From a virus (Duplodnaviria; Heunggongvirae; Uroviricota; Caudoviricetes), in IMG/VR virus record IMGVR_UViG_3300042341_001208: DNA of 64,000 bases, one strand, 5' to 3'. The position numbers and the translations under genes are program-made. The notes under the pieces were generated by a model. It made no database searches, had not been told where the DNA came from, and saw only the letters and a program-made list of their open reading frames with translations. Shown piece after piece: positions 7,251 through 25,072 of the stretch. The first letter of the stretch is position 1. Each line of letters opens with the position of its first letter.

Positions 7251-10200
7251 ATGGCTCAAAAGTATTTGAGCAAAGCTTTGGCTTTCGCTTTAACCTTGTT
7301 TGCAACACAAGGAAATCTTCATGCAGCATGCGGGAATCTCACACCGAGTTTCAGTAATGCATCCAACAAAACCTGTGGTATACCTCAGGTAATTACACTT
7401 ACCAATACTTCCACTGGAAACAGTCGAAATGTAGCCACCTACAAGTGGTATGTGGGTACCACACTGCTGAGCACACAAGTTGGCAAATCCACCCAAAAAT
7501 ACACCATCAACACTGCAGGTAGCTATACCTTCAAGTTGGTGGCGATAGATACGGGTAAGGTGGGCTGTAAAGACAGCACAAGCACTACCATTACCATTTC
7601 GGCATCTGTTCCGAGAATTTTGGATGGCAATAGAGTAAATACCTATTCTCCCATTTGGGAAAATTGTATAAGTTCATTGGGGGTTCCTGACACCTTTGGT
7701 ATAAATATCAAACCTCAGGATTCATTGCGAAATTACACCATAGTTTGGGGGGATGGCACCGGTAATTCTACTGGCACTTTACTGCTTAGCAGCCAATCCC
7801 TCTACCATAAGTATAATTCACTAGGACAATTTACTTTATTAATCATCGGAACAAAGGGAAGTTGCACTGATACCCTTCGAGGTGTGGTGTCGAATGAAAG
7901 AAATCCTGTGGCTGGAATTGTGGGTCCACCAACAGGAACCAATGCAGGTTGTGTGCCCATTCGCATGCGTTTTATCAATAACTCTTCCTTAAGCTCACCT
8001 AGCACCACTTTTACCTGGGATTTTGGCAATGGCGAAACCATAGTAAGGGGATTCAATACCCACAAAGACACTTTATTTTATACCTATAAGCGCTTTTTGT
8101 GTAATGGCATCGTGAAACTTACTCAAACCAATAATTGTGGTTCGAGTTTTGCCACCTGGAACCCAATCATGGCTTCCTCTAAGGATACTGCCATTATTGC
8201 GCCGACCAATCCGACCAACTGCGATCTTGCTGTACCTTTTACGTTTAACAATACCTCTCAAAATCGTTTTTGTAGCACGCCAAACAATAAGAAATACCTC
8301 TGGGTTTGGGGCGACGGAACCAATTCTGGTTGGAGTACTTCTTCTGCTTCGCAGTCTAAAACCTACAGCAAGCGCGGTGTGTACCAGGTCTTGCTGATTG
8401 ATTCAAATGGCTGCGGTAAAGATACTGCAAGGTATACCTTGCGTATCGATAGCATGCCTACCATTTCTGCAGGCCCAGCGTCGGCTGCAGGATGCTCACC
8501 TTTGGTGGTAAACTTCAGAGACAACAGCATAAATGCAACTTCTAGAAATTGGGATTTTGGATATGCAACACCAACAAGCAGTGCGCAAAACCCAACCCAT
8601 ACCTATCAAACAGGTGGTACATATAGAGCAGTGCTGACAGTAGCCAACAATTGTGGATCATTAAAAGATACTGTCCTTATTACTGTCAAACAAAAAGTAA
8701 AGGCAAACTTCAATACACCGCTTACTGGCTGTGCTCCATTAACACAGAAATGGACCAATACATCTGTCAAAGGATTGGCAGGAACCCCTACATATTTCTG
8801 GGATTTTGGGGACGGAACAACTTCTACCCAGGTGAATCCTCCAGATAAAACTTACTCTACGTTAGGGACATATACCATTACACTCATTGCTACAGACTCA
8901 TGCGGTAAGGATACCATTAAAAAGACGTTTACCGTCCGTGGTAAGCCCTCTGCTACAATTACTTTGTTATCTTCAAGCCGGTGTGTGGGCAGCACTTTAG
9001 ATATTCGCTTTGTAACCTCACCCGTAAATACAGCTTCAGTTATCTGGGGTGATGGAACCAATGGCAGCAGTTATTTCGGATTGGGTGGTTCAGTTGACCG
9101 CACGGTTTCCAGAAAATACGACAGTCTGCGCACCTACAGATTTGGGGTAGTTATGGTGGATCCAAGCGGTTGCCGAGACACCAATTACCTAAACATTGCA
9201 ATGGATCCAAGGCCTACGATGAACTATACCTACACCACAACCAATGGTTGTGGTCCTTTGGATGTTACATTTACCAATACCAGTGCGCACAATGGAGGGG
9301 GTAACATCAACCAAATGAAGTTCTTATGGAACTTTAGTAATGGTATATTGGCTTACAGCAAAGATACTGCAGCTAGGTTCTTGCCGTTTAAAACAAGAGA
9401 CTCTATTTATCCCGTTAAATTAATTGGAACAAACGCCTTTGGCTGCAGAGATTCCATTACCAAAACGGTTCGAGTTTATCCAAAACCATTGAGTAAATTT
9501 AGTATTAGTGAAAAGGATGGTTGTGCACCTTTGGATATTACTACTACGAACAATTCTACTCCATATGACACGGGTTCTATAAACATAATGAAGTTTATAT
9601 GGGACTTTGGCAACGGCAGGAAAGCGTTTGGTAAAGATACTGCTGCTCGATTCTTAGCCAGTAAAACAAAAGATACTGTGTATACTGTTAGTCTGATATC
9701 TATTTCTGAACATGGTTGCCGAGATACCAGTTCAACCACAGTGCGTATTTATCCAAAACCTAAAGCCTTATTTACCAGAAGTAAAACTGAAGGTTGCAAA
9801 CCACTCGGGGTTACCTATGTCAACCAAAGTGTACCCTACGATACCGGCAATATATCAATAATGAGTTTTGCTTGGGATTTAGGAAATAGAATTACCTCAT
9901 TCGCTACAGAACCTGTGGGTATCTATAATGATGCGATAAACAAAGATACTACTTATAAGGTACGTTTGATTGCCACTAGTGAGCACGGATGCAAGGATAC
10001 TGCAAATTCCACTGTACTGTTACATCCGAATCCGGTGATTAAATTTGATATGAGCCGCACCAATGGCTGCGGTCCATTGCCTGTGAGCTTCTCGAACAAG
10101 AGCATCAACGGCGATGCATTTACTTGGGAGTTTGGCGTATATGGAACTGATACCGCAAAGAGTCCTAGTAAGGTATTCTATGGCCGCGATATTTTTGACT

Positions 10201-12344
10201 CAGTAGTAGTGGTGAAGCTTAGCGCGATGAGCAAATTTGGCTGCTTGAGTGATACGCTAAAAGACGAAGTGACGGTTTTTGGATTACCTATTGCCAACTA
10301 TCTAGTTTCAACAGATACCTTCTGTTTCCCTGACCTGACGCAGTTTTTGAACCAAAGTTTGGCTTCCTACAACTACACTTGGGATTTGGGCGATGGCACT
10401 GTAACAGGAACTACAAACCCCAAACATTTCTTCAAGAAAAGCTCAAGTCCATTTAGTGATACTACCTATTTCATCAAACTTGTTGCTACAAGCCCTTACG
10501 GATGTAAGGACACCGCAAACGGCAGTATGACCGTATTGCCTTACCCTATTCCAAAATTCAGTGTTGACAATCCTGCGGGTTGTGCGTCACACACAGTGAA
10601 GTTCAACAACCAGTCGGTAAACGTGTTGAATTACCTGTGGGTATTTGGAGATGGATATACATCAACCGATGTGAACCCTACCCATACCTTTATAAATACC
10701 GGTGCGAATGATACGGCGTATCAGGTTGTTCTTTATACCTACTCTTTGGATTGTGTAGACTCTACTAGTATTTGGATACCAGTTTACAAGCCCTCGTATT
10801 CATTCTTCAGAACGGACCGGGTAAATCCATGTGATGCTGGATATTTTAAATTCCAGAGCTTTGGCGAAAATGCGCCAATTGTGAAGTACAATTTTGGTGA
10901 TGGTAGCACATCAACTTTTCCCAACCTAACGCATTTATTCCCAACCTCACCTTACACCGATACAAGCTTCATCGTTACACTATACACCACAAGCAATCGC
11001 GGTTGCACAGACAGCTTTAAACGCACAGTTACGCTCCCACAGCGACTTTCTATCGGAATGAAAGACACCAGTTATGCGCTATGTGCTCCGACGGTAATTC
11101 AGTTTACAAACTACACAAGGGGTGCACGCACATATATTTGGGACTTTGGAGATAATGGAGGAAGTTCTCAGAAGAACCCAATTTATGAATACCAAAAACC
11201 GGGCTTATACGCATATAAGTTGTTTGCCTTTGACGCAAATGGGTGTATTGACAGTCAGGTTTCAAACGGCACTGTTCGTGTGGATGTGAGTCCTAAAGCG
11301 GATTTTGACTTTAGTCCTGGTAAAGGCCGCATGCCAAATGACAACCGTATTTTCTTTACTGACAAGAGCCGCAGTGTGATACCACTGACCTATTTCTGGG
11401 ATTTCTCGGATCCAGCGGGTATACCTGCAACGAGTACGATTCAAAATGCAACCCACGATTTTAGCGACTCTGGAGACTATAAAATCTGTTTGACGGTAGA
11501 TAATGGGGGTTGTAAGAATATATTTTGCAATTTTGTACGCATCGATCCGGCATTTCCAACCCCAGATTTCTCGGTGGGTGGGGATTCGGGTTGCCCACCT
11601 CTTACCGTGCAGTTTACCAACCTTTCTGTGAACTCTGACCGCTATATATGGTTCTTTGGTGACGGTGAAAGAAGCGAGGACAAAGACCCAGTCCATACCT
11701 ATAAGTACAGCGGATATTACGACGTGATTTTGATCGCAAAAGGTCCAGGGGGTGAGGGTAAAACGGAGAAGAAGCAGTTCATAAAAGTATTGAATGCACC
11801 ATTCACGTATTTCAATCTCACGCCCTCTATATTGTACCTTCCTGATGCCAAATTCACAACTCGAAACCTGACTACTGGAGCTGTAGGATATCAGTGGAAT
11901 GTGTACAACAGCAGCACTAGAAATCGAGTTGGGAATAGCCTTTTGGTGAATCCCTATTTCCAAGTAAACGATACGGGGCATTATGATGTGGAATTGATTT
12001 CAGTAAGCAGTCAGGTCTGTTATGATACCCTATTGTTGCCCAAGCCCATCTACGTGAATCCACGTGGCATATTGCATGTACCGGATGCCTTCACACCTAC
12101 CAATGATGAACGCAACGATGTGTTTAAACCAAGCGCGATAAACGTGCAAAAGGATTTCTATCTCTTCCAGATCTATAACAGATGGGGTGAAATCGTATTC
12201 GAAACCAAAGACCCCGATGAGGGTTGGGACGGCCGTAAAAAGGGCAAAATATGCCAAAGTGGAGTCTATGTATATAAAATCAATGCAAGACTCTTCAGCG
12301 GGGATGATATTTCAGCGGATGGTGTGGTTCACTTGATTCGATAG
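7251..12344 (+). CDS. giant secreted PKD-repeat protein with T9SS (gliding-motility-type) C-terminal sorting domain
   Basis: Signal peptide MAQKYLSKALAFALTLFATQGNLHAAC; at least 12 PKD-like repeats (GC.PL.V.F.N.S...W.FGDGT...NP.H.Y...G.Y.V.L.A...GC.DT); C-terminus LHVPDAFTPTNDERNDVFKP...YNRWGEIVFET...GWDG...GVYVY matches CHU_C/T9SS type-B CTD; TAG stop. Confidence 0.8.
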   Translation: MAQKYLSKALAFALTLFATQGNLHAACGNLTPSFSNASNKTCGIPQVITLTNTSTGNSRNVATYKWYVGTTLLSTQVGKSTQKYTINTAGSYTFKLVAIDTGKVGCKDSTSTTITISASVPRILDGNRVNTYSPIWENCISSLGVPDTFGINIKPQDSLRNYTIVWGDGTGNSTGTLLLSSQSLYHKYNSLGQFTLLIIGTKGSCTDTLRGVVSNERNPVAGIVGPPTGTNAGCVPIRMRFINNSSLSSPSTTFTWDFGNGETIVRGFNTHKDTLFYTYKRFLCNGIVKLTQTNNCGSSFATWNPIMASSKDTAIIAPTNPTNCDLAVPFTFNNTSQNRFCSTPNNKKYLWVWGDGTNSGWSTSSASQSKTYSKRGVYQVLLIDSNGCGKDTARYTLRIDSMPTISAGPASAAGCSPLVVNFRDNSINATSRNWDFGYATPTSSAQNPTHTYQTGGTYRAVLTVANNCGSLKDTVLITVKQKVKANFNTPLTGCAPLTQKWTNTSVKGLAGTPTYFWDFGDGTTSTQVNPPDKTYSTLGTYTITLIATDSCGKDTIKKTFTVRGKPSATITLLSSSRCVGSTLDIRFVTSPVNTASVIWGDGTNGSSYFGLGGSVDRTVSRKYDSLRTYRFGVVMVDPSGCRDTNYLNIAMDPRPTMNYTYTTTNGCGPLDVTFTNTSAHNGGGNINQMKFLWNFSNGILAYSKDTAARFLPFKTRDSIYPVKLIGTNAFGCRDSITKTVRVYPKPLSKFSISEKDGCAPLDITTTNNSTPYDTGSINIMKFIWDFGNGRKAFGKDTAARFLASKTKDTVYTVSLISISEHGCRDTSSTTVRIYPKPKALFTRSKTEGCKPLGVTYVNQSVPYDTGNISIMSFAWDLGNRITSFATEPVGIYNDAINKDTTYKVRLIATSEHGCKDTANSTVLLHPNPVIKFDMSRTNGCGPLPVSFSNKSINGDAFTWEFGVYGTDTAKSPSKVFYGRDIFDSVVVVKLSAMSKFGCLSDTLKDEVTVFGLPIANYLVSTDTFCFPDLTQFLNQSLASYNYTWDLGDGTVTGTTNPKHFFKKSSSPFSDTTYFIKLVATSPYGCKDTANGSMTVLPYPIPKFSVDNPAGCASHTVKFNNQSVNVLNYLWVFGDGYTSTDVNPTHTFINTGANDTAYQVVLYTYSLDCVDSTSIWIPVYKPSYSFFRTDRVNPCDAGYFKFQSFGENAPIVKYNFGDGSTSTFPNLTHLFPTSPYTDTSFIVTLYTTSNRGCTDSFKRTVTLPQRLSIGMKDTSYALCAPTVIQFTNYTRGARTYIWDFGDNGGSSQKNPIYEYQKPGLYAYKLFAFDANGCIDSQVSNGTVRVDVSPKADFDFSPGKGRMPNDNRIFFTDKSRSVIPLTYFWDFSDPAGIPATSTIQNATHDFSDSGDYKICLTVDNGGCKNIFCNFVRIDPAFPTPDFSVGGDSGCPPLTVQFTNLSVNSDRYIWFFGDGERSEDKDPVHTYKYSGYYDVILIAKGPGGEGKTEKKQFIKVLNAPFTYFNLTPSILYLPDAKFTTRNLTTGAVGYQWNVYNSSTRNRVGNSLLVNPYFQVNDTGHYDVELISVSSQVCYDTLLLPKPIYVNPRGILHVPDAFTPTNDERNDVFKPSAINVQKDFYLFQIYNRWGEIVFETKDPDEGWDGRKKGKICQSGVYVYKINARLFSGDDISADGVVHLIR

Positions 12345-12393
12345 ACTATCTGTGTAACAAGATGGCATAATGAAAATTGTAATAATAAAAATT

Positions 12394-12403
12394 GACCGTA
12401 TAT
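12394..12403 (+). promoter_or_regulatory. GACCGTATAT promoter-like motif
   Basis: 7 nt upstream of ATG 12411. Confidence 0.45.
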
Positions 12404-12410
12404 TTATAAA

Positions 12411-12761
12411 ATGGCAATAAAATACAAAGAGTTTAAAAAGAAATTACAAAACGAACCCCTAACCGAAGAGGAATTAACCATTATTCAGGAGACAGAAGAT
12501 TATATTGACTCTGAAATTCTAAACCAATTTCCGAAGAGCAATTACGGAGAGGTTCTAATTGATTTGACTTATCCGTCTTTTACCTACTCTCATCAAAGAG
12601 GTTCTTTGATGGACTCAAATTCATATAGAAGATCCTTGATGAGATCCGAATTAGAAAAAAGATACAAATCAGCCGGATGGAAGATAGAGGTTAAATTCGA
12701 CGATGGACTGGATGGACCTAATATGTCCGGTCCAGATTATTGGATATTAAAAGGAAAGTAG
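12411..12761 (+). CDS. hypothetical protein
   Basis: 116-aa ORF; promoter motif 7 nt upstream. Confidence 0.45.
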   Translation: MAIKYKEFKKKLQNEPLTEEELTIIQETEDYIDSEILNQFPKSNYGEVLIDLTYPSFTYSHQRGSLMDSNSYRRSLMRSELEKRYKSAGWKIEVKFDDGLDGPNMSGPDYWILKGK

Positions 12762-12787: not shown

Positions 12788-13690
12788 ATGTTACAATTAA
12801 ATTTAGCAGACTCAGATAAGTCACAGATCAAATTTAAACCATCTGCATTTCCAGACGGCCAGCAATCAATCACTTTAGCTCTGTCCACAATCTCAGATCT
12901 AGAAATATCTTGCACAATCAAGTCCAGATTAAATTCTTTCAGGGATTTAGAACTCATAGTCTGCGCAGCAGCTGCATTGAGAGAAGCTGGAATGGAAAGA
13001 ATTCACCTTTATATTCCATACTGTCTAGGCGGAAGATCTGACATCAAATTTGAAGAAGGTGGCTTAAACTACATCAAGAGTGTAATTGCACCTATCATCA
13101 ATTTACAAAAATTTACTTCTGTTACCGTCATGGATGCTCACTCGATAGCTCTAGAAAATTGCATTGATAATTTGAAAAAGCTAGACAATTCTTATCTTGC
13201 AAAATGGGCAATCAAGGATCTATCTTCAGAAGGAGGAGATTTCAAATTGGTCTCTCCTGATGCTGGAGCACTAAAGAAAATATTCTCAACAGCTAAATCT
13301 ATCGGATATAAAGGAGAAATAATAGTTGCTGAAAAAGTTAGAGATTTATCTACCGGAAAAATTATTCACACCAAGGTACCTATAAACGTTTATGATGCAG
13401 ATAAAGATTTTATCATTATAGATGATATCTGTGACGGTGGGAGAACATTCATAGAAATCGCCAAGGCTATAGAAGAAATGAGATCTTTAAGTTCAGTGGT
13501 TCATCCAGATAAGCACGGAAAAAATTACCTTATCGTAACTCACGGCATCTTCAGCGCAGGATTTGAAGAACTTAGTAAATATTTTGATAGAATTTATACC
13601 ACCAATTCTATCTCCGAAATAAACGAGTCTGAAAATTACAAAGGTGCTGAATTTGATAAACAATTTGTTAAACAACTAAACGTATTCTAA
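12788..13690 (+). CDS. prs: ribose-phosphate pyrophosphokinase (PRPP synthetase)
   Basis: Start set to ATG 12788 just after the promoter motif; motifs VTVMDAHS, KLVSPDAGALKK, IIIDDICDGGRTF (PRTase-type PRPP loop), LIVTHGIFS. Confidence 0.75.
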   Translation: MLQLNLADSDKSQIKFKPSAFPDGQQSITLALSTISDLEISCTIKSRLNSFRDLELIVCAAAALREAGMERIHLYIPYCLGGRSDIKFEEGGLNYIKSVIAPIINLQKFTSVTVMDAHSIALENCIDNLKKLDNSYLAKWAIKDLSSEGGDFKLVSPDAGALKKIFSTAKSIGYKGEIIVAEKVRDLSTGKIIHTKVPINVYDADKDFIIIDDICDGGRTFIEIAKAIEEMRSLSSVVHPDKHGKNYLIVTHGIFSAGFEELSKYFDRIYTTNSISEINESENYKGAEFDKQFVKQLNVF

Positions 13691-13691
13691 A

Positions 13692-14165
13692 ATGAAAGAA
13701 ACACTAGAATTGAGAATGTATGGATTAGTTCCATATAACTTAAGCCCCATCCAGCAAGGGATCCAATTTGGACACGCAGTTGTTGAGTATGGGTTAACCC
13801 ATTTCGGAGAAAAAAATTACCGGGATTGGGCTAACAATCATAAGACCTTTATCATTCTCAATGGAGGGACTACTAATAATTCCATAGATAAAGAAACAGG
13901 AAATCCAAAAGGAACTTTAAATCAGCATGCGGTAAACCTTAGAGATATGGGGATTCCTTTTTGCACCTTTTATGAGCCTGACTTAGGGGATCAATTAACA
14001 GCAGTAGTTTTTCTAGTAGACGAACATGTCTTCAACAGAGAAAAATATCCGGATCCAAGAGATCCATTTAATCAGGATTGGGCTTGGTCTGAGCATCTTA
14101 GCACAGAAGAACTTTCTAGAGTTTTGCAAATGAGAGACTTTTTAAAACAATTTAGATTAGCATAA
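13692..14165 (+). CDS. PTH2-like (peptidyl-tRNA hydrolase 2 family) protein, divergent
   Basis: LRMYGLVPYNLSPIQQGIQFGHAV and FYEPDLGDQLTAVVFL parallel the KMILVVRNDL...AAQCSHA and DAG..T.l.igP segments of PTH2; paralog of the TAG-containing ORF at 25811. Confidence 0.4.
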   Translation: MKETLELRMYGLVPYNLSPIQQGIQFGHAVVEYGLTHFGEKNYRDWANNHKTFIILNGGTTNNSIDKETGNPKGTLNQHAVNLRDMGIPFCTFYEPDLGDQLTAVVFLVDEHVFNREKYPDPRDPFNQDWAWSEHLSTEELSRVLQMRDFLKQFRLA

Positions 14166-14686
14166 TGGAATCATACTCAGAAATAGAAGGAGATTTAATC
14201 TCATTAGCAAAGCAAGGTAAATTTGAAGTTATCACCCATGGATGTAATTGCAGATCCCAAATGGGAGCAGGGATTGCACCACAAATGGCAAAAGCATTTG
14301 GATGCGATAAATTCGAAATGGAAACTTGGGGTCCAACTATCGAAAAATTAGGCTGCATAGATTATGAAACTGTAGTTCTAGGAGAAAATGCAATCTGGAG
14401 TCTTCTGGATGCTAAAAATAACCGAAACGAACCTGAATTGGCCGTTGTTAATTCTTACACCCAAAACTACTACGGAAAGAATCACTCAGATGGGGTTTCC
14501 AAACCTTTAGACTACGAGGCTTTAACCCTTTGCATGAGGAAGATCAATTCTACCTTTAGAGGCAAACACATAGGAATGCCAAAAATAGGAGCAGGATTAG
14601 CTGGAGGAGATTGGAACAGAATAAAAAAAATCATACAGACCGAATTAAAAGACTGTAAAGTAACTATAGTAATATACAACAAATAA
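14165..14686 (+). CDS. macrodomain protein, TARG1/OARD1/DarG-like (Macro_2 type)
   Basis: GDLISLAKQGKFEVITHGCNCRSQMGAGIAPQMAKAFG matches the GDLF...SLAHCIS.D..MGAGIA..F...FG signature of TARG1-type ADP-ribose hydrolases. Confidence 0.6.
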   Translation: MESYSEIEGDLISLAKQGKFEVITHGCNCRSQMGAGIAPQMAKAFGCDKFEMETWGPTIEKLGCIDYETVVLGENAIWSLLDAKNNRNEPELAVVNSYTQNYYGKNHSDGVSKPLDYEALTLCMRKINSTFRGKHIGMPKIGAGLAGGDWNRIKKIIQTELKDCKVTIVIYNK

Positions 14687-14706
14687 ATTAAATAAAATAA
14701 AATATC

Positions 14707-15066
14707 ATGGACAATCAAATTGATGAAATGACCGGAACCTTGGAAGAAATGAAAGGTGCATTCGTAGGCTCTTTAGTGCGTAACAACAAAAAGATCCGCG
14801 AAGACAGAGCAATCGCAATCGCAGAAGCTGCTCAAATGCTCTACAAAAGAAAAGTTGAGGACACAGAATTAGCTATTAAACAGCTAAAAAGAGAAAGAGA
14901 ATCTATGTTAGACCTTAGTCCAACAACAGCAGATTCTTTGGTAATGGCTTCAGATTTTGACGCAGAAGCTTTCATCCAAAAGGATGTAGAGATCGGTCTC
15001 AAAATTAGAAATTTAGAGATCACTCTAGAAATTGCAAGAACTCGTTACAACCACTTATTTGAATAA
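14707..15066 (+). CDS. coiled-coil hypothetical protein
   Basis: 119 aa, heptad-like charged/hydrophobic pattern. Confidence 0.4.
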   Translation: MDNQIDEMTGTLEEMKGAFVGSLVRNNKKIREDRAIAIAEAAQMLYKRKVEDTELAIKQLKRERESMLDLSPTTADSLVMASDFDAEAFIQKDVEIGLKIRNLEITLEIARTRYNHLFE

Positions 15067-15071
15067 TCCGT

Positions 15072-15953
15072 ATGGGAAATTCAAGTTATTCTACCTATAA
15101 TAGATCCATCAGATCCGAATCTTTTGGCTATCATAGCAAATCAAGAAACGAGATCTTTACCCAAAGTAAAGAGGGTAAAGCTCACGAGCAAATGAGACCT
15201 AAAGGAATCGTCTACAGAGAATGTAGAGATTCCGAGGCTCACCCGAATGCTACCCCGATTCAGCTTTATTTGGACGTTACCGGAAGCATGGGACATATTC
15301 CCCACGAAATGATTAAAGACGGTTTACCAACTTTAATGGGGAATCTAATTCAAAGAGGTGTAGAGGATGCTTCCCTTATGTTTGGAGCTATCGGTGACCA
15401 CGAATGTGACAAATCACCTCTCCAAGTTGGACAGTTTGAATCTGGTGACGAAGAATTGGACATGTGGCTTACCAGAACCTGGCTCGAAGGCGGAGGTGGT
15501 GGAAACGGCGGAGAAAGCTATCCATTAGCTTGGTATTTCGCAGGAAATCACGTTGCAACAGATGCTTGGGAGAAGAGAAACCAAAAAGGATTCGTATTCA
15601 CTATCGGTGATGAGCCTTTCCTTAATTCTCTACCAATGTCTGCAGTAAAGGAAATCATGGGGGATTCAGCATCAGGCCAATCTACTTGGGATGCTACAGT
15701 TCTTCTAGAACAAGCTCAAAAGACAAATCACGTTTTCCATATCTTCTTAGAACATGGTTACAGAAAAGTTGATTCGGCTTGGAAAGAATTAATGGGAGAT
15801 CACCTTATAGTTGCAAAAGACTATAAAGATATCCCGAAAATTATCTCAGAAACAATTTTAACTATTCAAGGGGAAAGAAAACCTTCTGAGAATGCGACCG
15901 TATATTCTAGTAATACTACAGATGAAAAAGACTCTGTAGATATTATCCTATAA
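15072..15953 (+). CDS. von Willebrand factor A (vWA) domain protein
   Basis: MIDAS-like LYLDVTGSMG (DxSxS) then Rossmann-like layout; Gly-rich loop EGGGGGNGGE. Confidence 0.55.
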   Translation: MGNSSYSTYNRSIRSESFGYHSKSRNEIFTQSKEGKAHEQMRPKGIVYRECRDSEAHPNATPIQLYLDVTGSMGHIPHEMIKDGLPTLMGNLIQRGVEDASLMFGAIGDHECDKSPLQVGQFESGDEELDMWLTRTWLEGGGGGNGGESYPLAWYFAGNHVATDAWEKRNQKGFVFTIGDEPFLNSLPMSAVKEIMGDSASGQSTWDATVLLEQAQKTNHVFHIFLEHGYRKVDSAWKELMGDHLIVAKDYKDIPKIISETILTIQGERKPSENATVYSSNTTDEKDSVDIIL

Positions 15954-17011
15954 TGAATACGAGCAAAATAGTAATTGGACTAAACTACGGAGACGAAGGA
16001 AAGGGGTTAACCACCTCTTTCCTCTGTTCCCAATCTAAAAATCCCATCGTTGTTAGATTCAACGGGGGTCACCAAGCAGGTCACACAGTATCCTTCAAAG
16101 GAAAAAGACATGTGTTTTCTAGCTTTGGATCAGGAACACTTCAAAAAGTTCCAACGTACTGGAGCAAATATTGCACATTCTCTCCGACAGCATTTCTAAA
16201 TGAATTAAAATTTCTACTGGATAAATCTTTAAAATTCCCAGGATTTTATCTTGATCCTTTATGTCCAATCACAACACCTTACGATTTATACAGCAACCGA
16301 AAAGATTCCCAGAATGTGAGTCATGGAACAGTCGGGGTAGGATTTGGATCAACTCTTAAAAGACACGAAAACTTTTATAAGCTTTATGCACAGGATATGT
16401 TCTATCCAGAAGTCTTCAAAGCAAAATTAGAAAACATTGCTAAGTATTACGGAATGGAGGATCTCGAAATCGATAACTTTTTAGAAGACGTAACAATTGT
16501 AACTACTATAGTTCAATTGACAAATGAAAAAGTTCTTTTAAATTATTCAGATGCTATATTTGAAGGGGCTCAAGGGGTTCTTTTAGATATGGATTTTGGA
16601 TTTTTTCCAAACGTTACCAGATCTAATACAACATCTAAAAATGCACTGGAAATTTCTCCTCTGCATTCAAACGAAATCTACTACATCACAAGATCTTATT
16701 TAACTAGACACGGAGCTGGATTTCTTCCAGGAGAAAAAGAACTTCCCCTAATTAATAATGAATTGGAGACAAACGTCTCTCATGAATACCAAGGAAATTT
16801 TAGAACAGCAGATTTAGATTTGGATCTTCTAAACTATTCTTTAAAATGTGACTCTCATTTTTCTGAGGGTCAAACCAAAAATCTAGTAATTACCTGCATG
16901 GATCAATATCCAATAGATGTAGAAAAATTGCTAGAAAAATTAGAAATTAAATTCAATAAAGTGTTCGTCTCTTACGGGGATTCACTTGATAAAATACAAC
17001 AATTAAAATGA
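15953..17011 (+). CDS. short adenylosuccinate synthetase homologue (PurA family; PurZ candidate)
   Basis: GDEGKG P-loop (IGLNYGDEGKGL), GGHQAGHTV, EGAQGVLLDMDFGFFPNVTRSNTT, TRHGAGFLPGE; 352 aa, shorter than bacterial PurA (about 430 aa), like archaeal PurA and phage PurZ. Confidence 0.7.
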   Translation: MNTSKIVIGLNYGDEGKGLTTSFLCSQSKNPIVVRFNGGHQAGHTVSFKGKRHVFSSFGSGTLQKVPTYWSKYCTFSPTAFLNELKFLLDKSLKFPGFYLDPLCPITTPYDLYSNRKDSQNVSHGTVGVGFGSTLKRHENFYKLYAQDMFYPEVFKAKLENIAKYYGMEDLEIDNFLEDVTIVTTIVQLTNEKVLLNYSDAIFEGAQGVLLDMDFGFFPNVTRSNTTSKNALEISPLHSNEIYYITRSYLTRHGAGFLPGEKELPLINNELETNVSHEYQGNFRTADLDLDLLNYSLKCDSHFSEGQTKNLVITCMDQYPIDVEKLLEKLEIKFNKVFVSYGDSLDKIQQLK

Positions 17012-17481
17012 AAATAACAGAAAAATATGTCTTCTTTTGGAACGGGATTTATTCTCAGTGGCACAAAGCAAAAATGACAATCGACGGTGTTGAGTATAGC
17101 TCTTGTGAGCAATATATGATGCATCAAAAAGCTATCGTCTTCAGCGACTTTTATATTGCATCTCAGATACTTCTGACAGAGAATCCGAAAGAGCAAAAAG
17201 CACTCGGAAGACAAATTCAAGGGTTTGATAAAAACATTTGGGATTCGGTTTGCTTGAGCATAGTCTATAAAGGAAATCTAGCTAAATTTTCTCAAAATGA
17301 GGATCTAAAATCAGATCTTCTTTCCACCGAGAATAGAATCCTGGTAGAAGCTTCACCCTTGGATCAAATTTGGGGAATTGGAATGGCAGAGGATCATCCA
17401 AATATAGAATCTCCAGAACACTGGAGGGGACTGAACTTGCTTGGATGGGCGTTAAACTTAGTAAAAAAAGAATTAAATTAA
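17008..17481 (+). CDS. NADAR (YbiA/DUF1768) domain protein
   Basis: FFWNGIYSQW...IDGVEYSSCEQYMMHQKA...KALGRQIQ...IWD...KFSQNEDLKSDLLSTENRILVEASPLDQIWGIGM matches NADAR family conserved blocks. Confidence 0.65.
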   Translation: MKITEKYVFFWNGIYSQWHKAKMTIDGVEYSSCEQYMMHQKAIVFSDFYIASQILLTENPKEQKALGRQIQGFDKNIWDSVCLSIVYKGNLAKFSQNEDLKSDLLSTENRILVEASPLDQIWGIGMAEDHPNIESPEHWRGLNLLGWALNLVKKELN

Positions 17482-17721
17482 ATGAAAAGTACAGAATTTG
17501 CATATTGGTTACAAGGGTTCTTCGAACTTAGCGAAACTAACACCTTGTCGGAAAGACAGGTCGAAACTATTAAAAATCATTTGAAGCTGGTTTTCTATCA
17601 TGAGATAGATCCTTCCTATTCTACAGATCCTGTAGTACAGGAAACCATGCAAAAAATTCACGACGGAGAACCTCAAAAGAGAACTCCGAGAAATTCTAAC
17701 CCAAGAACTATAAAATGTTAA
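17482..17721 (+). CDS. hypothetical small protein (tandem paralog A)
   Basis: AYWLQGFFEL...RQVETIKNHLKLVFYHE parallels next gene. Confidence 0.4.
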   Translation: MKSTEFAYWLQGFFELSETNTLSERQVETIKNHLKLVFYHEIDPSYSTDPVVQETMQKIHDGEPQKRTPRNSNPRTIKC

Positions 17722-17984
17722 CCATGGAAGAAACAAGAAATTTTGTTATCTGGCTTGATGGATTTCTAGAAGCTTGCGGGCCAACTCCAACTAAGGAGCA
17801 GGTCGAAAAAATAAAATCCAGGCTGAATGGAATTTTTGAGCATGTTGCAGAAATCCCAGCTAAGGAGAACGAAAAACCGTCTCTAGAGGAATTAGGACAA
17901 GAACATGGATTTAATGTATATCCCGGATTTCCTGGATCAGGATTTCCTTTTAGAGATGAAGGTGGTGGTTTATTAAGATGCTAA
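17715..17984 (+). CDS. hypothetical small protein (tandem paralog B)
   Basis: FVIWLDGFLEAC...KEQVEKIKSRLNGIFEHV parallels the previous gene; Gly/Pro-rich tail. Confidence 0.4.
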   Translation: MLTMEETRNFVIWLDGFLEACGPTPTKEQVEKIKSRLNGIFEHVAEIPAKENEKPSLEELGQEHGFNVYPGFPGSGFPFRDEGGGLLRC

Positions 17985-18329
17985 ATGAGTAGAGTAATTT
18001 ATATAGCTTCTCCTTATTCTAATCCCGACCCTGATGTTACCGAGGAGAACTTTAAAAAAGTCTCGAGGCTTGCGGCTAAGCTTTGCTCAGAGGGTCAGGT
18101 TGCAATTTCCCCTATTACTTATGGTCACACGCTGGTTGGATTTAAACCAATGCCAATTGACTGGCCATTCTGGGAGAATTTTTGTCTTTCCATTCTCCAG
18201 GCTTGTGACGAAATCATAGTTTATAAAATGGAAGGTTGGGATAGATCGAGAGGTGTTGCAGAAGAGGTCGAATTTGCCAGAAGAAAAGGAATCCAGATCA
18301 CGTATATGGAATATGATCCTTCTATCTAA
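17985..18329 (+). CDS. nucleoside 2-deoxyribosyltransferase-like (DUF4406-type) protein
   Basis: VIYIASPYS...GQVAISP...DEIIVYKMEGWDRSRGVAEEVEFARRKG pattern of the Ndt/DNPH1-like flavodoxin-fold family. Confidence 0.45.
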   Translation: MSRVIYIASPYSNPDPDVTEENFKKVSRLAAKLCSEGQVAISPITYGHTLVGFKPMPIDWPFWENFCLSILQACDEIIVYKMEGWDRSRGVAEEVEFARRKGIQITYMEYDPSI

Positions 18330-18337
18330 CCGTATAT
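18328..18337 (+). promoter_or_regulatory. GACCGTATAT-family motif (AACCGTATAT)
   Basis: 17 nt upstream of ATG 18355. Confidence 0.45.
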
Positions 18338-18354
18338 TTAAATAAAATACCTTT

Positions 18355-18798
18355 ATGGAATTAAGAGAATATTTCGAAACAAATCCGGACTCTATCCCTT
18401 ATCTAGAAAGACTAGAAAGTGAATGGGAACAGTATGGAAAGATAATCATCGGATGTGATTATGACGACACAATTTCCCCATGGAAGATGGAGAATTTTAA
18501 TCCAGAAAGGGTTCTAGAAGTTCTAAAGGTTGCTAGAGAAACCGGAGCTTACATCGTAATCTTTACTTCTTGTGACAAAGCAAGATATCCAGAAATCGAA
18601 GACTATTGTAAAAGCATTGGCCTCACAATCGACTCGATCAATAAAAATCCAATCGACTTACCTTACGGTAAAAAAGGTAAAATCTATGCCAACATTTTCC
18701 TGGATGACAGAGGTGGAATGAATGAATCCCTAAACATTCTAGAAATGGCAACGTATAGAATTAGAGGAAAAAGAAGAGTTTTAGGAATCAACGTATAA
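18355..18798 (+). CDS. HAD-superfamily phosphatase-like protein
   Basis: Motif I IIIGCDYDDTI (DxDxT), motif III-like NIFLDDRGG; promoter motif upstream. Confidence 0.45.
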   Translation: MELREYFETNPDSIPYLERLESEWEQYGKIIIGCDYDDTISPWKMENFNPERVLEVLKVARETGAYIVIFTSCDKARYPEIEDYCKSIGLTIDSINKNPIDLPYGKKGKIYANIFLDDRGGMNESLNILEMATYRIRGKRRVLGINV

Positions 18799-18806
18799 TT
18801 AAGAAA

Positions 18807-18971
18807 ATGAAAATGAACCCAAAAGAAAAAGAATTGGAAAATATCCAATCCCAACAAAACCCTTCAAAAGAGGTTAATCCAACCGAGTCTGTAATAATAA
18901 AACAGATCGAGGATGATTTTGAATATCAAGAATATTATTCAGAAAATTCTCCTAATTTCGACGTAGATTAA
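18807..18971 (+). CDS. possible small acidic ORF (54 aa), not in supplied track
   Basis: ATG..TAA ORF MKMNPKEKELENIQSQQNPSKEV... fills the gap before the NAMPT promoter; coding status uncertain. Confidence 0.25.
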   Translation: MKMNPKEKELENIQSQQNPSKEVNPTESVIIKQIEDDFEYQEYYSENSPNFDVD

Positions 18972-18978
18972 TCAGGAG

Positions 18979-18988
18979 GACCGTATAT
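18979..18988 (+). promoter_or_regulatory. GACCGTATAT promoter-like motif
   Basis: gGACCGTATATtcaataaaataataaat, 20 nt upstream of nadV ATG 19009. Confidence 0.5.
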
Positions 18989-19008
18989 TCAATAAAATAA
19001 TAAATATT

Positions 19009-20538
19009 ATGTTTAAATGTAATTCACTATTCTACACAGACGGCTACAAAATTGGCCACAAAAGAATGCTAGCACCAGGAACAACTCGTTTATACGGAAC
19101 CTGGATTCCACGAAGTATTAAACACGCTCCAAAAGGAGTTAAAAAAATCGTATCGTTTGGCCAGCAACTAGCTGTTAAATGGTTACACGATGAATTCGAA
19201 GAAAATTTCTTCAAGCTTCCTTTAGAAGAAGCAATGGAATTCGGAAATGATATGGCAATGTATCTCGGCCTCGAGTATGATGCTTCTCATTTCGAAGCTC
19301 TCCACAAATTAGGTTACTTGCCTATCAAAGTTAAATCTTTACCAGAAGGTATCGAAACTCTTCCAAATGTTCCACACATGACCTTCATTAATACCGTGGA
19401 TGGATTTGCTTGGTTAACCCTTTATTTGGAAACCATCATCTCTTCATTAGCTTGGAAGCCTTCAACATCAGCTACAATCGCTTTACAGTACAAAAGAAAC
19501 CTGATCGAATGGGTAAGAAAAACAGACCCTAAAAACATCTGGTTAGTTCCTTTCCTAGCTCACGACTTCTCGGCTAGAGGTTTGTCTCCTTGGGACATGT
19601 TAGCAAGCGGTTTAGGACACGCTACATCATTCAGAGGTTCAGACACAATAGTTTGTATCCCAGCAGCTCGATACTTCTACAACGAGCCTAAAAACGAGGT
19701 CTGCATCAATTCTGTAAACGCTTCAGAACACTCAGTATCTACCACCAAAATTTTCACAGTCGGCGAACAACAAATGATAGCAGACTGGTTAAGAGAATTC
19801 GACAAAGGTATCCTTTCAATCGTTTCAGACACATTCGATTTATGGACACTAATCACCAAATATTTACCTGCCAACAAAGAGGCTATCATGGCCAGAGACG
19901 GTAAATTGGTTATCAGACCTGACTCAGGAGACCCAGTAGATATTATTTGCGGATTAGAAAATAAAGTTCTTGAGGAAGGAGTGGGATATAAAGAAGAATA
20001 CAAAGAAAGCCCAGAATACAAAGGAGTTATCGAATTACTTTGGGACATCTTCGGAGGTACAATCAACGAAGAAGGTTACAAAGTACTTGATCCTCACATC
20101 GGAGCAATCTACGGGGACTCTATTACCTTGGACAGACAAATCCAAATCTACGAAAGATTAGCAGCTAAAGGATTTGCAACTACCAATATCGTTTTAGGTA
20201 TCGGTTCTTACACCTACCAAATGAACACCAGAGACACCTTAGGCTTCGCAGCTAAAGGAGCATGGTTCGAAGTAGAAGAAAACGGTACTAAAGTAGGCTA
20301 CGACATCTACAAAGATCCTATCACAGACGATGGAACTAAGAAATCCTTAAAAGGACTTATTAGAGTCGATGAAGTTTCAGTAACTTCCGAGGAAACTGGA
20401 ATTACTTATACTAAGTATGAAGTAAAAACCCAATGTACCCCAGAACAAGAAGAAGGAGGCATCTTACAAACCATCTACGAAAATGGTAAATTCTACAATC
20501 AAACTACATTAACTGAAGTTAGATCAAAATTAAACTAA
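19009..20538 (+). CDS. nadV: nicotinamide phosphoribosyltransferase (NAMPT/NadV)
   Basis: LFYTDGYKIGH (TDSYK motif), LPIKVKSLPEGIETLPNVP, HDFSARGLS, FRGSDTI, VSDTFDLW, IRPDSGDPVD, GAIYGDSITLD all parallel NAMPT blocks. Confidence 0.85.
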   Translation: MFKCNSLFYTDGYKIGHKRMLAPGTTRLYGTWIPRSIKHAPKGVKKIVSFGQQLAVKWLHDEFEENFFKLPLEEAMEFGNDMAMYLGLEYDASHFEALHKLGYLPIKVKSLPEGIETLPNVPHMTFINTVDGFAWLTLYLETIISSLAWKPSTSATIALQYKRNLIEWVRKTDPKNIWLVPFLAHDFSARGLSPWDMLASGLGHATSFRGSDTIVCIPAARYFYNEPKNEVCINSVNASEHSVSTTKIFTVGEQQMIADWLREFDKGILSIVSDTFDLWTLITKYLPANKEAIMARDGKLVIRPDSGDPVDIICGLENKVLEEGVGYKEEYKESPEYKGVIELLWDIFGGTINEEGYKVLDPHIGAIYGDSITLDRQIQIYERLAAKGFATTNIVLGIGSYTYQMNTRDTLGFAAKGAWFEVEENGTKVGYDIYKDPITDDGTKKSLKGLIRVDEVSVTSEETGITYTKYEVKTQCTPEQEEGGILQTIYENGKFYNQTTLTEVRSKLN

Positions 20539-20550
20539 AAAAATCGGTAT

Positions 20551-20580
20551 CACCGGGGGGTTTCCCCGGTGACCGTATAT
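20551..20580 (+). promoter_or_regulatory. GC-rich stem-loop (CACCGGGG-ggttt-CCCCGGTG) fused to GACCGTATAT motif
   Basis: Perfect 8-bp hairpin 20551-20571 whose last base is the first base of the motif (20571-20580); 33 nt upstream of ATG 20614; no U tract, so not a canonical terminator. Confidence 0.45.
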
Positions 20581-23648: not shown

Positions 23649-24380
23649 ATGTTTAAATTTTATGAAGTTGGAGGAAAAATAAGAGACGAAATTTTAGAAT
23701 TATCTTCTAAAGATGTTGATTATGTAGCAGTTCCGAAAGAAGAATTACTAGATACAGTTGAGAAGGCAGAAGATATGTTCAGCATGTTAGAATCTTTTCT
23801 AAGAGTAGAAAAATTTGAGATCTTCTTGGTAACCCCAGACTGTTTTACAATTAGAGCAAAATTCCCAGCAGGACACAAATACTCAGGGGTTGCAGACTTT
23901 GTAATGGCCAGAAAGGAAATTGGTTATATTCCAGGAACTAGAACCCCAATTGTTAAGCCGGGAACCCTATTTGACGATCTTCAGAGAAGAGATTTTACCC
24001 TAAACGCTTTAGCAAAAGACGAGGACGGAACCATAATCGATTTCTTTGGAGGAATAGAGGATCTAAAGAAAAACCGTTTAAAAACTCCACTAGACTGCAA
24101 AATAACTTTTGATGACGATCCGCTTAGAATTCTTAGGGCCATCAGATTTTGTATAACTAAAGGGTTTTGGATTGGACCCTATATGGACGGGGTAATTCAG
24201 GATTACGACTACGAAGGAAAAATGGGGGTAGTTTCTATGGAGAGAATAAGAGAAGAATTGTTCAAATGTTTCAAACACGATACATTAAAAACCCTCAAAA
24301 CACTTCACGAATACCCAGCCCTAAGAAACTACATTTTTGAAAAAAATACACTTTGGTTAAAACCCACAATGGAGCAATAA
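23649..24380 (+). CDS. tRNA nucleotidyltransferase (CCA-adding enzyme/poly(A) polymerase family) head-neck domain
   Basis: YEVGGKIRDEIL..SKDVDYV (GGxVRD..D.D) and RRDFTLNALAKDEDGTIIDFFGGIEDL...DDPLRILRAIRF are class-II CCA-enzyme signatures; only 243 aa (minimal form). Confidence 0.7.
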   Translation: MFKFYEVGGKIRDEILELSSKDVDYVAVPKEELLDTVEKAEDMFSMLESFLRVEKFEIFLVTPDCFTIRAKFPAGHKYSGVADFVMARKEIGYIPGTRTPIVKPGTLFDDLQRRDFTLNALAKDEDGTIIDFFGGIEDLKKNRLKTPLDCKITFDDDPLRILRAIRFCITKGFWIGPYMDGVIQDYDYEGKMGVVSMERIREELFKCFKHDTLKTLKTLHEYPALRNYIFEKNTLWLKPTMEQ

Positions 24381-24385
24381 AATAT

Positions 24386-25072
24386 ATGATTTACGTATCA
24401 ATAGACATCGAAACTACAGGACTAAATCCTGAAACTTGCCAAATCCTTTCTATAGGAGCAGTTATAGAGGACACTCAAAAACAATTGGCTTTCGAGGAAA
24501 TTCCGAAATTCCATTGCGCAATACTGAAAAATGAAAGGGATATAATCTCCGGTGAGATTTATGCTTTGAATATGAATAGGGATTTGATAGAAAGCATCAC
24601 CTACTATTCTACAGCTAAAGATCAAGATGAAAAGAATGATCTAGTTCATTTTACAGGAATGCAGTTTGTTAGAGAAGAAGATATTGCAGAACATTTTTTC
24701 CAATTCCTTTATCGGAACGGATTCAAGCCAAACGAGTCTGATCTACCCCTGAATAAAAAAATTAAAATAATAAATGGAATATCTTATCCTGTTTTGGATT
24801 CTTCTGTAAAGCCAATCACCATAAATGTAGCTGGGAAAAATTTCTCTGGATTTGATAGAAAATTTCTAGATTTACTTCCTAGATGGAAGCAACTAATCAG
24901 AACAAGAAGTAGAGTTATAGATCCAGGTGTATTGTTTGTAGACTGGGAAAATGATGACGCAGTTCCTTCTTTAGATTCCTGCAAAAAAAGAGCACTAATA
25001 GAAGGAGTGGTTACCCATAATGCTTTAGAGGATGCTTGGGATGTTATTCAAGTCTTAAGAACAAAATACTAA
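24386..25072 (+). CDS. DEDDh 3'-5' exonuclease (DnaQ/RNase T-like)
   Basis: Exo I SIDIETTGL, Exo II-like NFSGFDRKFL, Exo III THNALEDAWD; start placed at in-frame ATG 24386 (track gives 24353, overlapping upstream gene). Confidence 0.6.
   Translation: MIYVSIDIETTGLNPETCQILSIGAVIEDTQKQLAFEEIPKFHCAILKNERDIISGEIYALNMNRDLIESITYYSTAKDQDEKNDLVHFTGMQFVREEDIAEHFFQFLYRNGFKPNESDLPLNKKIKIINGISYPVLDSSVKPITINVAGKNFSGFDRKFLDLLPRWKQLIRTRSRVIDPGVLFVDWENDDAVPSLDSCKKRALIEGVVTHNALEDAWDVIQVLRTKY

Follow-up and report, generated by a model that had tools for sequence, protein, structure and literature searches.

The window analyzed here is a stretch of 64,000 nucleotides from the Caudoviricetes record IMGVR_UViG_3300042341_001208 of IMG/VR, in which an earlier note, made from the sequence alone, had recognized genes for NAD reconstitution between positions 12,788 and 20,538. 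Some phages counter NAD+-depleting immunity with NAD+ reconstitution pathway 1 (NARP1), in which ADP-ribose (ADPR) is turned into its pyrophosphate (ADPR-PP) and this is then joined to nicotinamide to give NAD+ (Osterman et al., 2024). The two central genes of the region appear to encode the two NARP1 enzymes, the ADP-ribose pyrophosphokinase Adps and the nicotinamide ADP-ribose transferase Namat, and the locus is very probably an expanded, divergent and split NARP1 of a huge phage of Bacteroidota. It also contains a gene for a small haloacid dehalogenase (HAD)-type phosphatase, which recurs beside NARP1 genes in unrelated phage groups and only rarely shares a locus with the known accessory macro-domain gene. 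The core NARP1 and its macro extension are already known; what the analysis adds is a widespread association of NARP1 with the HAD gene, and possibly with the Nuc_deoxyri_tr2 gene, which the literature searched does not describe.

The locus and its phage

All open reading frames (ORFs) described in the earlier note are present on the plus strand with the coordinates given there, and Pfam and profile searches confirm the flanking genes with a ribosyltransferase-like fold (DUF1937 and Nuc_deoxyri_tr2) and the HAD gene. From 12.4 to 23.1 kb the window is a run of co-directional ORFs, opened at about 12.4 kb by an ORF of 116 aa that precedes adps; the remaining members are listed from 5' to 3' in Table 1. 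The ORF boundaries agree with those in near-identical metagenome contigs, where independent gene calls gave identical products for adps (300 aa) and namat (509 aa). When 12 kb of the locus was compared by megablast with 50,697 phage records, no match was obtained, and relatives were found in metagenomes instead; some of them are referred to below by locus number (L002 and so on). Because relatives with 80% identical proteins lie on contigs of 391-400 kb that also encode T9SS-tail proteins (T9SS, type IX secretion system), the window is taken to be part of a huge (about 400 kb) phage of a Bacteroidota host.

Table 1. Features of the locus and its downstream flank, in 5' to 3' order.
Feature	Coordinates	Strand	Basis or remarks
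adps, predicted ADP-ribose pyrophosphokinase (Prs-like), first NARP1 enzyme	12788..13690	+	model scores, tree, PP loop
157-aa PTH2-fold hydrolase-like protein	13692..14165	+	AlphaFold2 model, Foldseek, PHROG 3668
macro-domain protein, probable Adpp (ADPR-1''-phosphate phosphatase)	14165..14686	+	homology, PHROG 335, fold
two ORFs, 119 aa and 293 aa (the latter PHROG 2971)	14707..15953	+	lineage-specific inserts
short adenylosuccinate-synthetase-like (PurA-like) protein, 352 aa	15953..17011	+	Pfam Adenylsucc_synt, E 2e-41
NADAR-domain protein, AdfN-like	17008..17481	+	Pfam NADAR, E 5e-50; TIGR02464, 153 bits
two small ORFs, 79 aa and 89 aa	17482..17984	+	no family match
DUF1937 protein, nucleoside 2-deoxyribosyltransferase-like fold	17985..18329	+	Pfam, E 1e-19; PDB 1T1J (hypothetical protein), E 4e-9
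147-aa capless HAD-type phosphatase, recurrent third NARP1 gene	18355..18798	+	motifs, profile, neighborhood
54-aa ORF	18807..18971	+	no family match; conserved in L007, L008, L020 and L022
namat, predicted nicotinamide ADP-ribose transferase (Nampt-like), second NARP1 enzyme	19009..20538	+	PDB, pairwise scores, motif
GC-rich hairpin, 10-bp stem	20549..20573		just 3' of namat; possible end of a transcription unit
SPFH/Band 7 protein, 640 aa	20614..22536	+	Pfam Band_7, E 3e-26; directly after namat
Nuc_deoxyri_tr2-family protein, 159 aa	22641..23120	+	Pfam, E 9e-38; PDB relative 4MCJ (uncharacterized)
HAD_SAK_2 protein	25036..25656		Pfam

The two core enzymes

The earlier note had called the first gene prs, for a phosphoribosyl pyrophosphate (PRPP) synthetase, and regarded the assignment as unambiguous. 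The product scores below the cutoffs of both Pfam and NCBIfam. It reaches 22 bits with Pribosyltran (cutoff 26.3), has no match to the Prs-specific Pfam models Pribosyltran_N and Pribosyl_synth, and attains 82.7 bits with the NCBIfam Prs model TIGR01251 (cutoff 113). With the same model the verified Adps of phages ICP1 and Gary score 98 and 100 bits, other NARP1-linked Adps 70-73 bits, and the Prs of Escherichia coli 423 bits. In neighbor-joining trees (300 bootstraps, three column-trimming regimes) the lineage of the window and seven NARP1-linked Adps are split with 100% bootstrap support from seven other Prs-family sequences, taken from bacteria and one archaeon. BLAST scores are 88-129 bits with six of the NARP1-linked Adps and 27-56 bits with the seven other Prs-family sequences; the seventh Adps, from a Staphylococcus kayvirus, scores 41.6 bits, within the range of the latter.

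A remodeled pyrophosphate (PP) loop is the family-wide mark of Adps, and K185 and the loss of the C-terminal helices alpha11-alpha12 are further criteria (PMC13586617). The loop of the window protein, DDICDGGRTF, is identical to that of the Felixounavirus (EcoM2) Adps and close to that of ICP1 (DDICDGAASF); E. coli Prs has DDMIDTGGTL, and five of the seven other Prs-family sequences carry a DD[MI]IDT[GA]GT loop. Equivalents of K185 (within AEKVRD), R87, F92, H121, D161 and D212/D213 are present, and the alignment has a gap at the C-terminal helices of E. coli Prs, so that the alpha11-12 module is missing. On this homology the product of 12788..13690 is a member of the Adps family and not a canonical Prs.

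Among the metagenomic relatives, a 314 kb contig (L009) encodes an Adps 54% identical to that of the window, directly followed at 10001..11664 by a SIR2-family gene (Pfam, E 6e-42), and no Namat gene lies between Adps and the end of the contig. Apart from this SIR2 gene, Pfam searches of accessory genes in the distant relatives L002, L007, L009 and L010 gave nothing useful.

The second gene had been named nadV with equal assurance. When its product was compared with all sequences in the Protein Data Bank (PDB), the top matches were 9W5X and 9W5W (383 bits, E 2e-113), both of them structures of the NARP1 enzyme Namat from phage SPbetaL1 (PMC12774641). The next match was 9KE8 (344 bits), and the Nampt structures were weaker, with 164 bits for the Xanthomonas and 141 bits for the human enzyme. 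Pairwise scores give the same picture, 331-349 bits to the NARP1-linked Namats of ICP1, Gary and a Staphylococcus kayvirus versus 165 bits to the KVP40-type Nampt. Namat enzymes have a specific helix signature, GSXΦXΦXΦTRD; its aromatic X residues form stacking contacts with the adenine of ADPR-PP (PMC12774641). The window protein has GSYTYQMNTRD at residue 399, fitting the signature in 10 of 11 positions, with Tyr at position 3 and Met at position 7, and the corresponding stretch of the KVP40-type Nampt reads GGGLLQQLDRD. The catalytic His (in HDFS) and the equivalent of R306 (in RPDSGD) are kept. By these marks the protein is placed in the Namat and not in the Nampt subfamily.

Two models were dropped as discriminators in the course of these comparisons: with PHROG 619 and NF006629, canonical Prs and Nampt score about as well as Adps and Namat. 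As to the stability of the gene, namat of a 391 kb relative (L008, 17489..19903) is broken in two by the insertion of a reverse-strand ORF of 262 aa.

A route through ADPR-PP or through NMN

The earlier note had the two enzymes combine nicotinamide and PRPP into nicotinamide mononucleotide (NMN). Family membership points to another chemistry. Adps would move ATP's beta,gamma-pyrophosphate onto ADPR's distal ribose, yielding ADPR-PP and AMP, and Namat would join ADPR-PP with nicotinamide to give NAD+ and pyrophosphate, so that the phage could rebuild NAD+ from both products of SIR2, TIR and SEFIR NADases. This chemistry skips NMN, and therefore neither PRPP nor NMN nor an NMN adenylyltransferase (NMNAT) is needed. 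In published genomes 97% of Adps-clade genes have a Namat gene nearby, members of the Nampt clade travel with Nmnat, and no phage carries both pathways (Osterman et al., 2024). In our own sample Namat lies within 7 kb in 73 of 80 Adps-seeded viral loci.

The failure to recognize an NMNAT in the window, which the earlier note reported, holds true. In Pfam searches of 59 further ORFs, no match to CTP_transf_like was found at 0.1-6.8 kb or 25.9-39.5 kb, none was present among the 25 of 59 Pfam families listed for 39.5-64 kb, and a crude scan for the (H/T)xGH motif gave one chance match, ITYGH in the DUF1937 protein. The suggestions that the NMNAT step sits elsewhere in the genome or is supplied by the host fall away, as NARP1 has no such step, and the deoxyribosyltransferase-like ORFs, which had been considered as candidates for it, lack nucleotidyltransferase homology. 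The "missing NMNAT" is thus not missing. The broader reading, that these genes restore NAD+ against immunity, is borne out in so far as the system is of the NARP1 type, a kind shown to defeat NAD+-depleting defenses, and the clustering with ADP-ribose hydrolases is reflected in the ADP-ribose-processing macro and NADAR genes of the locus.

Several observations weigh against the assignment to NARP1. The trees are neighbor-joining trees with few Prs-family comparison sequences, and PHROG 619 scores E. coli Prs about equal to the window protein. In the R-x-D-R loop of Adps the second Arg (R90 in ICP1 numbering) is replaced by Ile in the window and in its nearest relative. In Namat, position 7 of the motif, an adenine-stacking site in the SPbetaL1 enzyme, is Met in the window as well as in L007 and L010, and it is Tyr or Phe in Lbo-JY46, ICP1, Gary and the Staphylococcus phage. 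The two genes are 5.3 kb (5318 bp) and 11 ORFs apart, namat being the twelfth gene downstream of adps, and with this distance the window fails the neighborhood rule of the published NARP1 survey, in which a Namat homologue was sought within ten genes of adps (Osterman et al., 2024).

The deviating Met and Ile would also suit a true PRPP synthetase and a true Nampt that make NMN, with an NMNAT of the host or elsewhere in the genome finishing NAD+ in a salvage resembling NARP2. Both proteins have the respective Prs and Nampt folds, NF006629 is passed, and Namat enzymes retain some PRPP-to-NMN activity in vitro (PMC12774641). The window moreover covers 64 kb of a genome of roughly 400 kb, about 85% of which lies outside it and could hold an NMNAT. 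We nevertheless consider this route very improbable, as the similarity of the product of 19009..20538 to Namat is double that to Nampt, the KVP40-type Nampt lacks the Namat motif, the Prs-like protein lies 30 bits under the Prs threshold and inside the Adps clade, no NMNAT was found in the searches of the window described above, and published Nampt-clade proteins pair with Nmnat and not with a Prs-like gene.

A different objection concerns the purpose of the locus, which might be general auxiliary metabolism that raises NAD+ for replication in a nutrient-poor host and has nothing to do with counter-defense. Huge phages are rich in metabolic genes, the window itself has MTHFR, PurA-like and sugar-nucleotide enzymes, and NARP2 increases NAD+ irrespective of defense (Osterman et al., 2024). 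NARP1, however, uses ADPR and nicotinamide, which are the products of NADases, and reportedly does not overproduce NAD+ unless depletion has occurred; in addition, the macro and NADAR neighbors process ADPR and have relatives with known counter-defense functions. Such a purely metabolic role therefore seems highly improbable to us, and a NARP1 directed against NAD+ depletion is the reading followed below.

The reassignment bears on annotation: thousands of phage genes annotated as "ribose-phosphate pyrophosphokinase" or "nicotinamide phosphoribosyltransferase" are really Adps and Namat, and their interpretation in terms of PRPP and NMN creates a false problem of a missing NMNAT.

A split cassette

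In the viral loci sampled, the gap from Adps to Namat has a median of 601 bp and a maximum of 5676 bp, which places the window near the extreme. Relatives at 45-59% identity have Adps and Namat zero to two genes apart. In the window the two genes share a strand with no strong terminator between them, and the hairpin behind namat is the sole strong hairpin within 12.2-23.2 kb; scans for promoters and terminators gave site totals no higher than in shuffled sequence. The ORFs of 119 and 293 aa, which have no match in Pfam or NCBIfam and are present only in the close relatives L007 and L008, look like lineage-specific inserts that may have split an ancestral Adps-(macro/HAD)-Namat cassette. The window shows that a NARP1 split by 11 genes can occur, and such a locus would slip past a ten-gene survey rule.

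The macro-domain gene

The product left by RES-type NADases (aRES), ADPR-1''-phosphate, is not usable by NARP1. In about 15% of NARP1 operons there is a macro phosphatase resembling Poa1p, named Adpp, which turns it back into ADPR; this arrangement is called NARP1-AP and is detected by a macro gene (PF01661, PF14519 or PF20016) within two genes of a NARP1 gene (bioRxiv 10.64898/2026.01.28.702374). The macro gene of the window is the second gene downstream of adps and so falls within this distance, with a marginal match to PF01661 (22 bits, equal to the cutoff). Its product aligns over its full length with the verified Adpp of Vibrio phage Gary (28% identity, E 1e-15), and both proteins belong to PHROG 335, "phosphatase" (144 and 171 bits). 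Eight macro proteins linked to NARP1, taken from Table S1 of the aRES preprint, likewise gave full-length alignments (E 2e-29 to 9e-8, best identity 34.5%). Poa1p matches with E 9e-5, the equivalent of its H23 being kept, and an AlphaFold2 model searched with Foldseek confirmed the macro fold. On this homology the protein probably functions as an Adpp, which would make the locus a NARP1-AP variant in which ADPR-1''-phosphate derived from aRES would be dephosphorylated back to ADPR.

Foldseek ranks Poa1p, TARG1 and DarG together, which counts against this assignment in that an Adpp-like role is not separable by fold from a DarG/TARG1-like one, and the sole NCBIfam match of the protein is DarG (30 bits). 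A de-ADP-ribosylase of the DarG/TARG1 kind acting against DarTG2, in a locus where the HAD protein would be a hitch-hiking nucleotide or RNA-end phosphatase, would agree with both observations, and a DarG2-like counter-defense of phages is known (PMC13309987). The weak DarG match does not discriminate, however, since the verified Adpp of Gary likewise has it (35 bits), and the window protein is nearer to proteins of the Adpp family (57-95 bits) than to DarG (15 bits). Together with what is said of the HAD gene below, this makes the alternative unlikely, and we retain Adpp as the preferred assignment. In L008, a homing-endonuclease gene of the GIY-YIG/NUMOD3 type (11869..12636) has been inserted after the macro gene.

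A HAD-type phosphatase as recurrent third gene

Of the accessory genes in the locus, the ORF of 147 aa upstream of namat tells the most. It has no match in a single-sequence Pfam search. The motifs of HAD phosphatases (D35xD37xT39, T71, K109 and D117D118) are conserved in 11 distant members of its family (27-59% identity), and a profile built from these matches the structure of the HAD-type phosphatase BT0820 (2OBB, E 9e-11). Searches of IMG/VR with peptide patterns taken only from the HAD protein gave 29 loci (47-74% identity), with Adps within 8 kb in 23 and Namat in 24, mostly as a tight Adps-HAD-Namat cassette; 24 of the 29 contigs have the gene beside one of the two. The family also adjoins Adps and/or Namat in eight of nine curated phage lineages. 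The order is Adps-HAD-Namat in Vibrio phage VPT02 and Aeromonas phage PhAER-3, Adps-Namat-HAD in Bacillus phage SalinJah and in Phass-1, Namat-HAD-Adps in the crAss-like phages DAC15 and cr126_1, HAD-Adps in the Lak-A2 megaphage and HAD-Namat in Tenacibaculum phage PTm1, and Ralstonia phage RSL2 has the HAD gene without a NARP1 gene nearby. SalinJah (Bastillevirinae) represents 54 Bacillus phage records with a relative of the HAD protein. The arrangement spans crAss-like phages, Lak megaphages, Bacillus Bastillevirinae, Vibrio Demerecviridae and huge environmental phages. Among the matches listed from public records, most are labeled "hypothetical protein", "phosphoheptose isomerase" or "hydrolase". 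A gene labeled "nicotinamidase" lies directly upstream of the Adps-Namat-HAD genes of Phass-1 (L062, 1869..5384), which is odd, as its product would consume the nicotinamide of Namat.

Co-occurrence was counted in 58 dereplicated, Adps-seeded NARP1 loci. The macro gene only is present in 23, the HAD gene only in 11, both in one and neither in 23 (Fisher p = 0.0096), and the two genes are nearly mutually exclusive. VPT02 and Gary illustrate this within one phage subfamily, for among shared flanking genes the slot between Adps and Namat holds the HAD gene in the former and the macro gene in the latter. Occupation of the same slot on the same strand together with near mutual exclusion is the pattern of non-orthologous displacement, and we therefore infer that the HAD protein is a phosphatase that feeds NARP1. 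The window is one of the rare loci with both genes, an argument against full redundancy of the pair.

Judged from gene neighborhood only, a functional tie between the HAD gene and NARP1 is likely, and a phosphatase activity on some phosphorylated ADPR is a reasonable possibility that falls short of being probable. Tentatively, the HAD gene may define an Adps-HAD-Namat variant of NARP1, in which a non-homologous analogue of Adpp would act on ADPR-1''-phosphate or on another phospho-ADPR. Other candidate substrates would be 2'-phospho-ADPR from the cleavage of NADP+, breakdown products of ADPR-PP, and products of ADPR-cyclic phosphate.

As mentioned for the macro gene, the HAD protein might instead be a passenger that acts on nucleotides or RNA ends. 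One public record labels a family member "polynucleotide kinase", a very weak profile match to Pnkp1 was obtained, and RNA-repair genes are nearby. Hitch-hiking is difficult to reconcile with a position beside or between Adps and Namat across crAss-like, Lak, Herelleviridae, Demerecviridae and other phages, and it leaves unexplained why the gene avoids loci with a macro gene. A phosphatase in the service of NARP1 remains the preferred explanation.

NARP1 and HAD terms were not found together in the literature searched, which was limited and does not prove novelty, and the part of Table S1 of the aRES preprint consulted lists macro neighbors only. The broader point is that NARP1 attracts accessory feeder enzymes, the macro protein answering aRES and a second, unrelated phosphatase family, present in crAss-like and Lak phages of the human gut, occupying the same slot. 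If the proposed role is correct, the HAD gene points to a bacterial defense that cleaves NAD(P)+ in a way that plain NARP1 cannot answer. The pattern gives a testable prediction on the arms race over NAD+, possibly concerning a bacterial defense chemistry that is yet to be discovered.

Other genes within the locus

The 157-aa ORF, whose product is highly conserved, starts 2 nt past the stop codon of adps and overlaps the start of the macro gene in an ATGA, which indicates translational coupling to both. It has no Pfam match and falls into PHROG 3668, "hydrolase" (E 1e-17); its AlphaFold2 model (pLDDT 90.6) finds archaeal and human peptidyl-tRNA hydrolase 2 as the top Foldseek matches (probability 1.0, E 1.5e-3). 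Of the 58 NARP1 loci, 8 have a PTH2-like gene in the interval from Adps to Namat. The coupling had raised the suspicion of a NARP1 component, which was set aside, as the family is also found without NARP1, among genes for RNA ligase, CCA-adding enzyme, Thg1 and exoribonuclease.

The PurA-like ORF overlaps the start of the NADAR gene. It lies below the cutoff of all NCBIfam models of PurA and PurZ, its best PDB match is E. coli PurA (103 bits), and it is probably not part of NARP1; no such gene was found in the 29 HAD-seeded loci. PurZ, and with it a genome containing 2-aminoadenine, was considered and rejected, as the PurZ model NF038379 (cutoff 300) reaches 40 bits in an alignment confined to the N-terminal 57 residues, and the best structure is a PurA. 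A second PurA-like gene, 24% identical, lies three genes from Adps in another lineage of phages (L010, 12507..13514).

The phage protein AdfN is an orphan NADAR antitoxin, which removes the ADP-ribose that DarT1 attaches to DNA guanine and so counters DarTG1 (PMC11825919, PMC11543638). NADAR genes are present in 7 of the 58 NARP1 loci and lie between Adps and Namat in 6 of these 7. The NADAR protein of the window probably acts separately from NARP1, by stripping ADP-ribose from DarT1-modified DNA.

The two small ORFs of 79 and 89 aa that follow resemble each other, and both match a single ORF of 98 aa in L007 and L008. DUF1937 genes are found near the HAD gene in 8 of the 29 HAD-seeded loci. 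Of the 58 dereplicated NARP1 loci, 28 contain a relative of the Nuc_deoxyri_tr2 gene, placed between Adps and Namat in 12 of them. Its product could likewise feed the pathway, for instance as a glycosidase that converts cyclic ADPR isomers to ADPR by ring opening. No functional information on DUF1937, DUF4406 or Nuc_deoxyri_tr2 was found in the literature searched. An SPFH gene lies beside NARP1 also in L033, L034, L040, the P0031 contig and the crAss-like phage cr126_1.

Surroundings of the locus

Immediately upstream (7251..12344) lies the gene for a protein of 1697 aa with many PKD repeats and a CHU_C C-terminal domain of the gliding/T9SS type. Downstream, at 23649..25656, an RNA-repair-like cluster encodes a CCA-adding/PolyA_pol head-domain protein, an RNase T-like exonuclease and the HAD_SAK_2 phosphatase, which suggests a defense against tRNA-cleaving systems. 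Cellular-type genes at 26-39.5 kb (or 0.1-6.8 kb) include MTHFR, FMN reductase, a DNA methylase and a MoxR-like AAA/VWA pair, and the stretch from 39.5 to 64 kb holds a ClpB-like AAA+ protein, ribosomal protein S21 and a long block of glycosyltransferase and sugar-nucleotide enzyme genes.

Comparison with known systems

The closest known systems are the NARP1 of SPbetaL1, Bas63, Fado and ICP1 (Osterman et al., 2024; PMC12774641; PMC13586617), with which the window shares the two enzyme subfamilies on one strand, the PP loop and catalytic Lys of Adps, the selectivity-helix motif (in 10 of 11 positions) and the catalytic His and Arg of Namat and, by extension, the predicted chemistry and the role against NAD+ depletion. 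It differs in the distance between the genes, which are adjacent in the known systems, in an identity of 30-43% to the characterized enzymes, in the Met that replaces the second adenine-stacking aromatic residue of Namat, and in its Bacteroidota host and genome of about 400 kb. NARP1-AP, as found in Vibrio phage Gary (Adps-Adpp-Namat), likewise has a macro gene of the same family (PHROG 335, 28% identity) within two genes of adps, but the window has in addition a PTH2-like ORF between adps and the macro gene as well as the HAD phosphatase. NARP2 of Vibrio phage KVP40 (Nampt with Nmnat/Nudix) has in common with the window a nicotinamide-using enzyme of the Nampt fold and the restoration of NAD+, whereas the window protein lies outside the Nampt clade (165 versus 331-349 bits) and is accompanied by a Prs-like Adps, with no Nmnat found in the window. 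AdfN of T-even phages (PMC11825919) is, like the NADAR protein described here, a stand-alone phage protein; the gene of the window is embedded in a NARP1 locus, its best NCBIfam match is a YbiA-type N-glycosidase model, and its specificity is a prediction. Lastly, BT0820 (PDB 2OBB), the sole solved relative of the HAD protein, shares with it the small capless HAD fold and the DxDxT, T, K and DD motifs, but BT0820 is a bacterial protein deposited as "Hypothetical protein", whereas linkage to Adps and Namat is what defines the phage family here.

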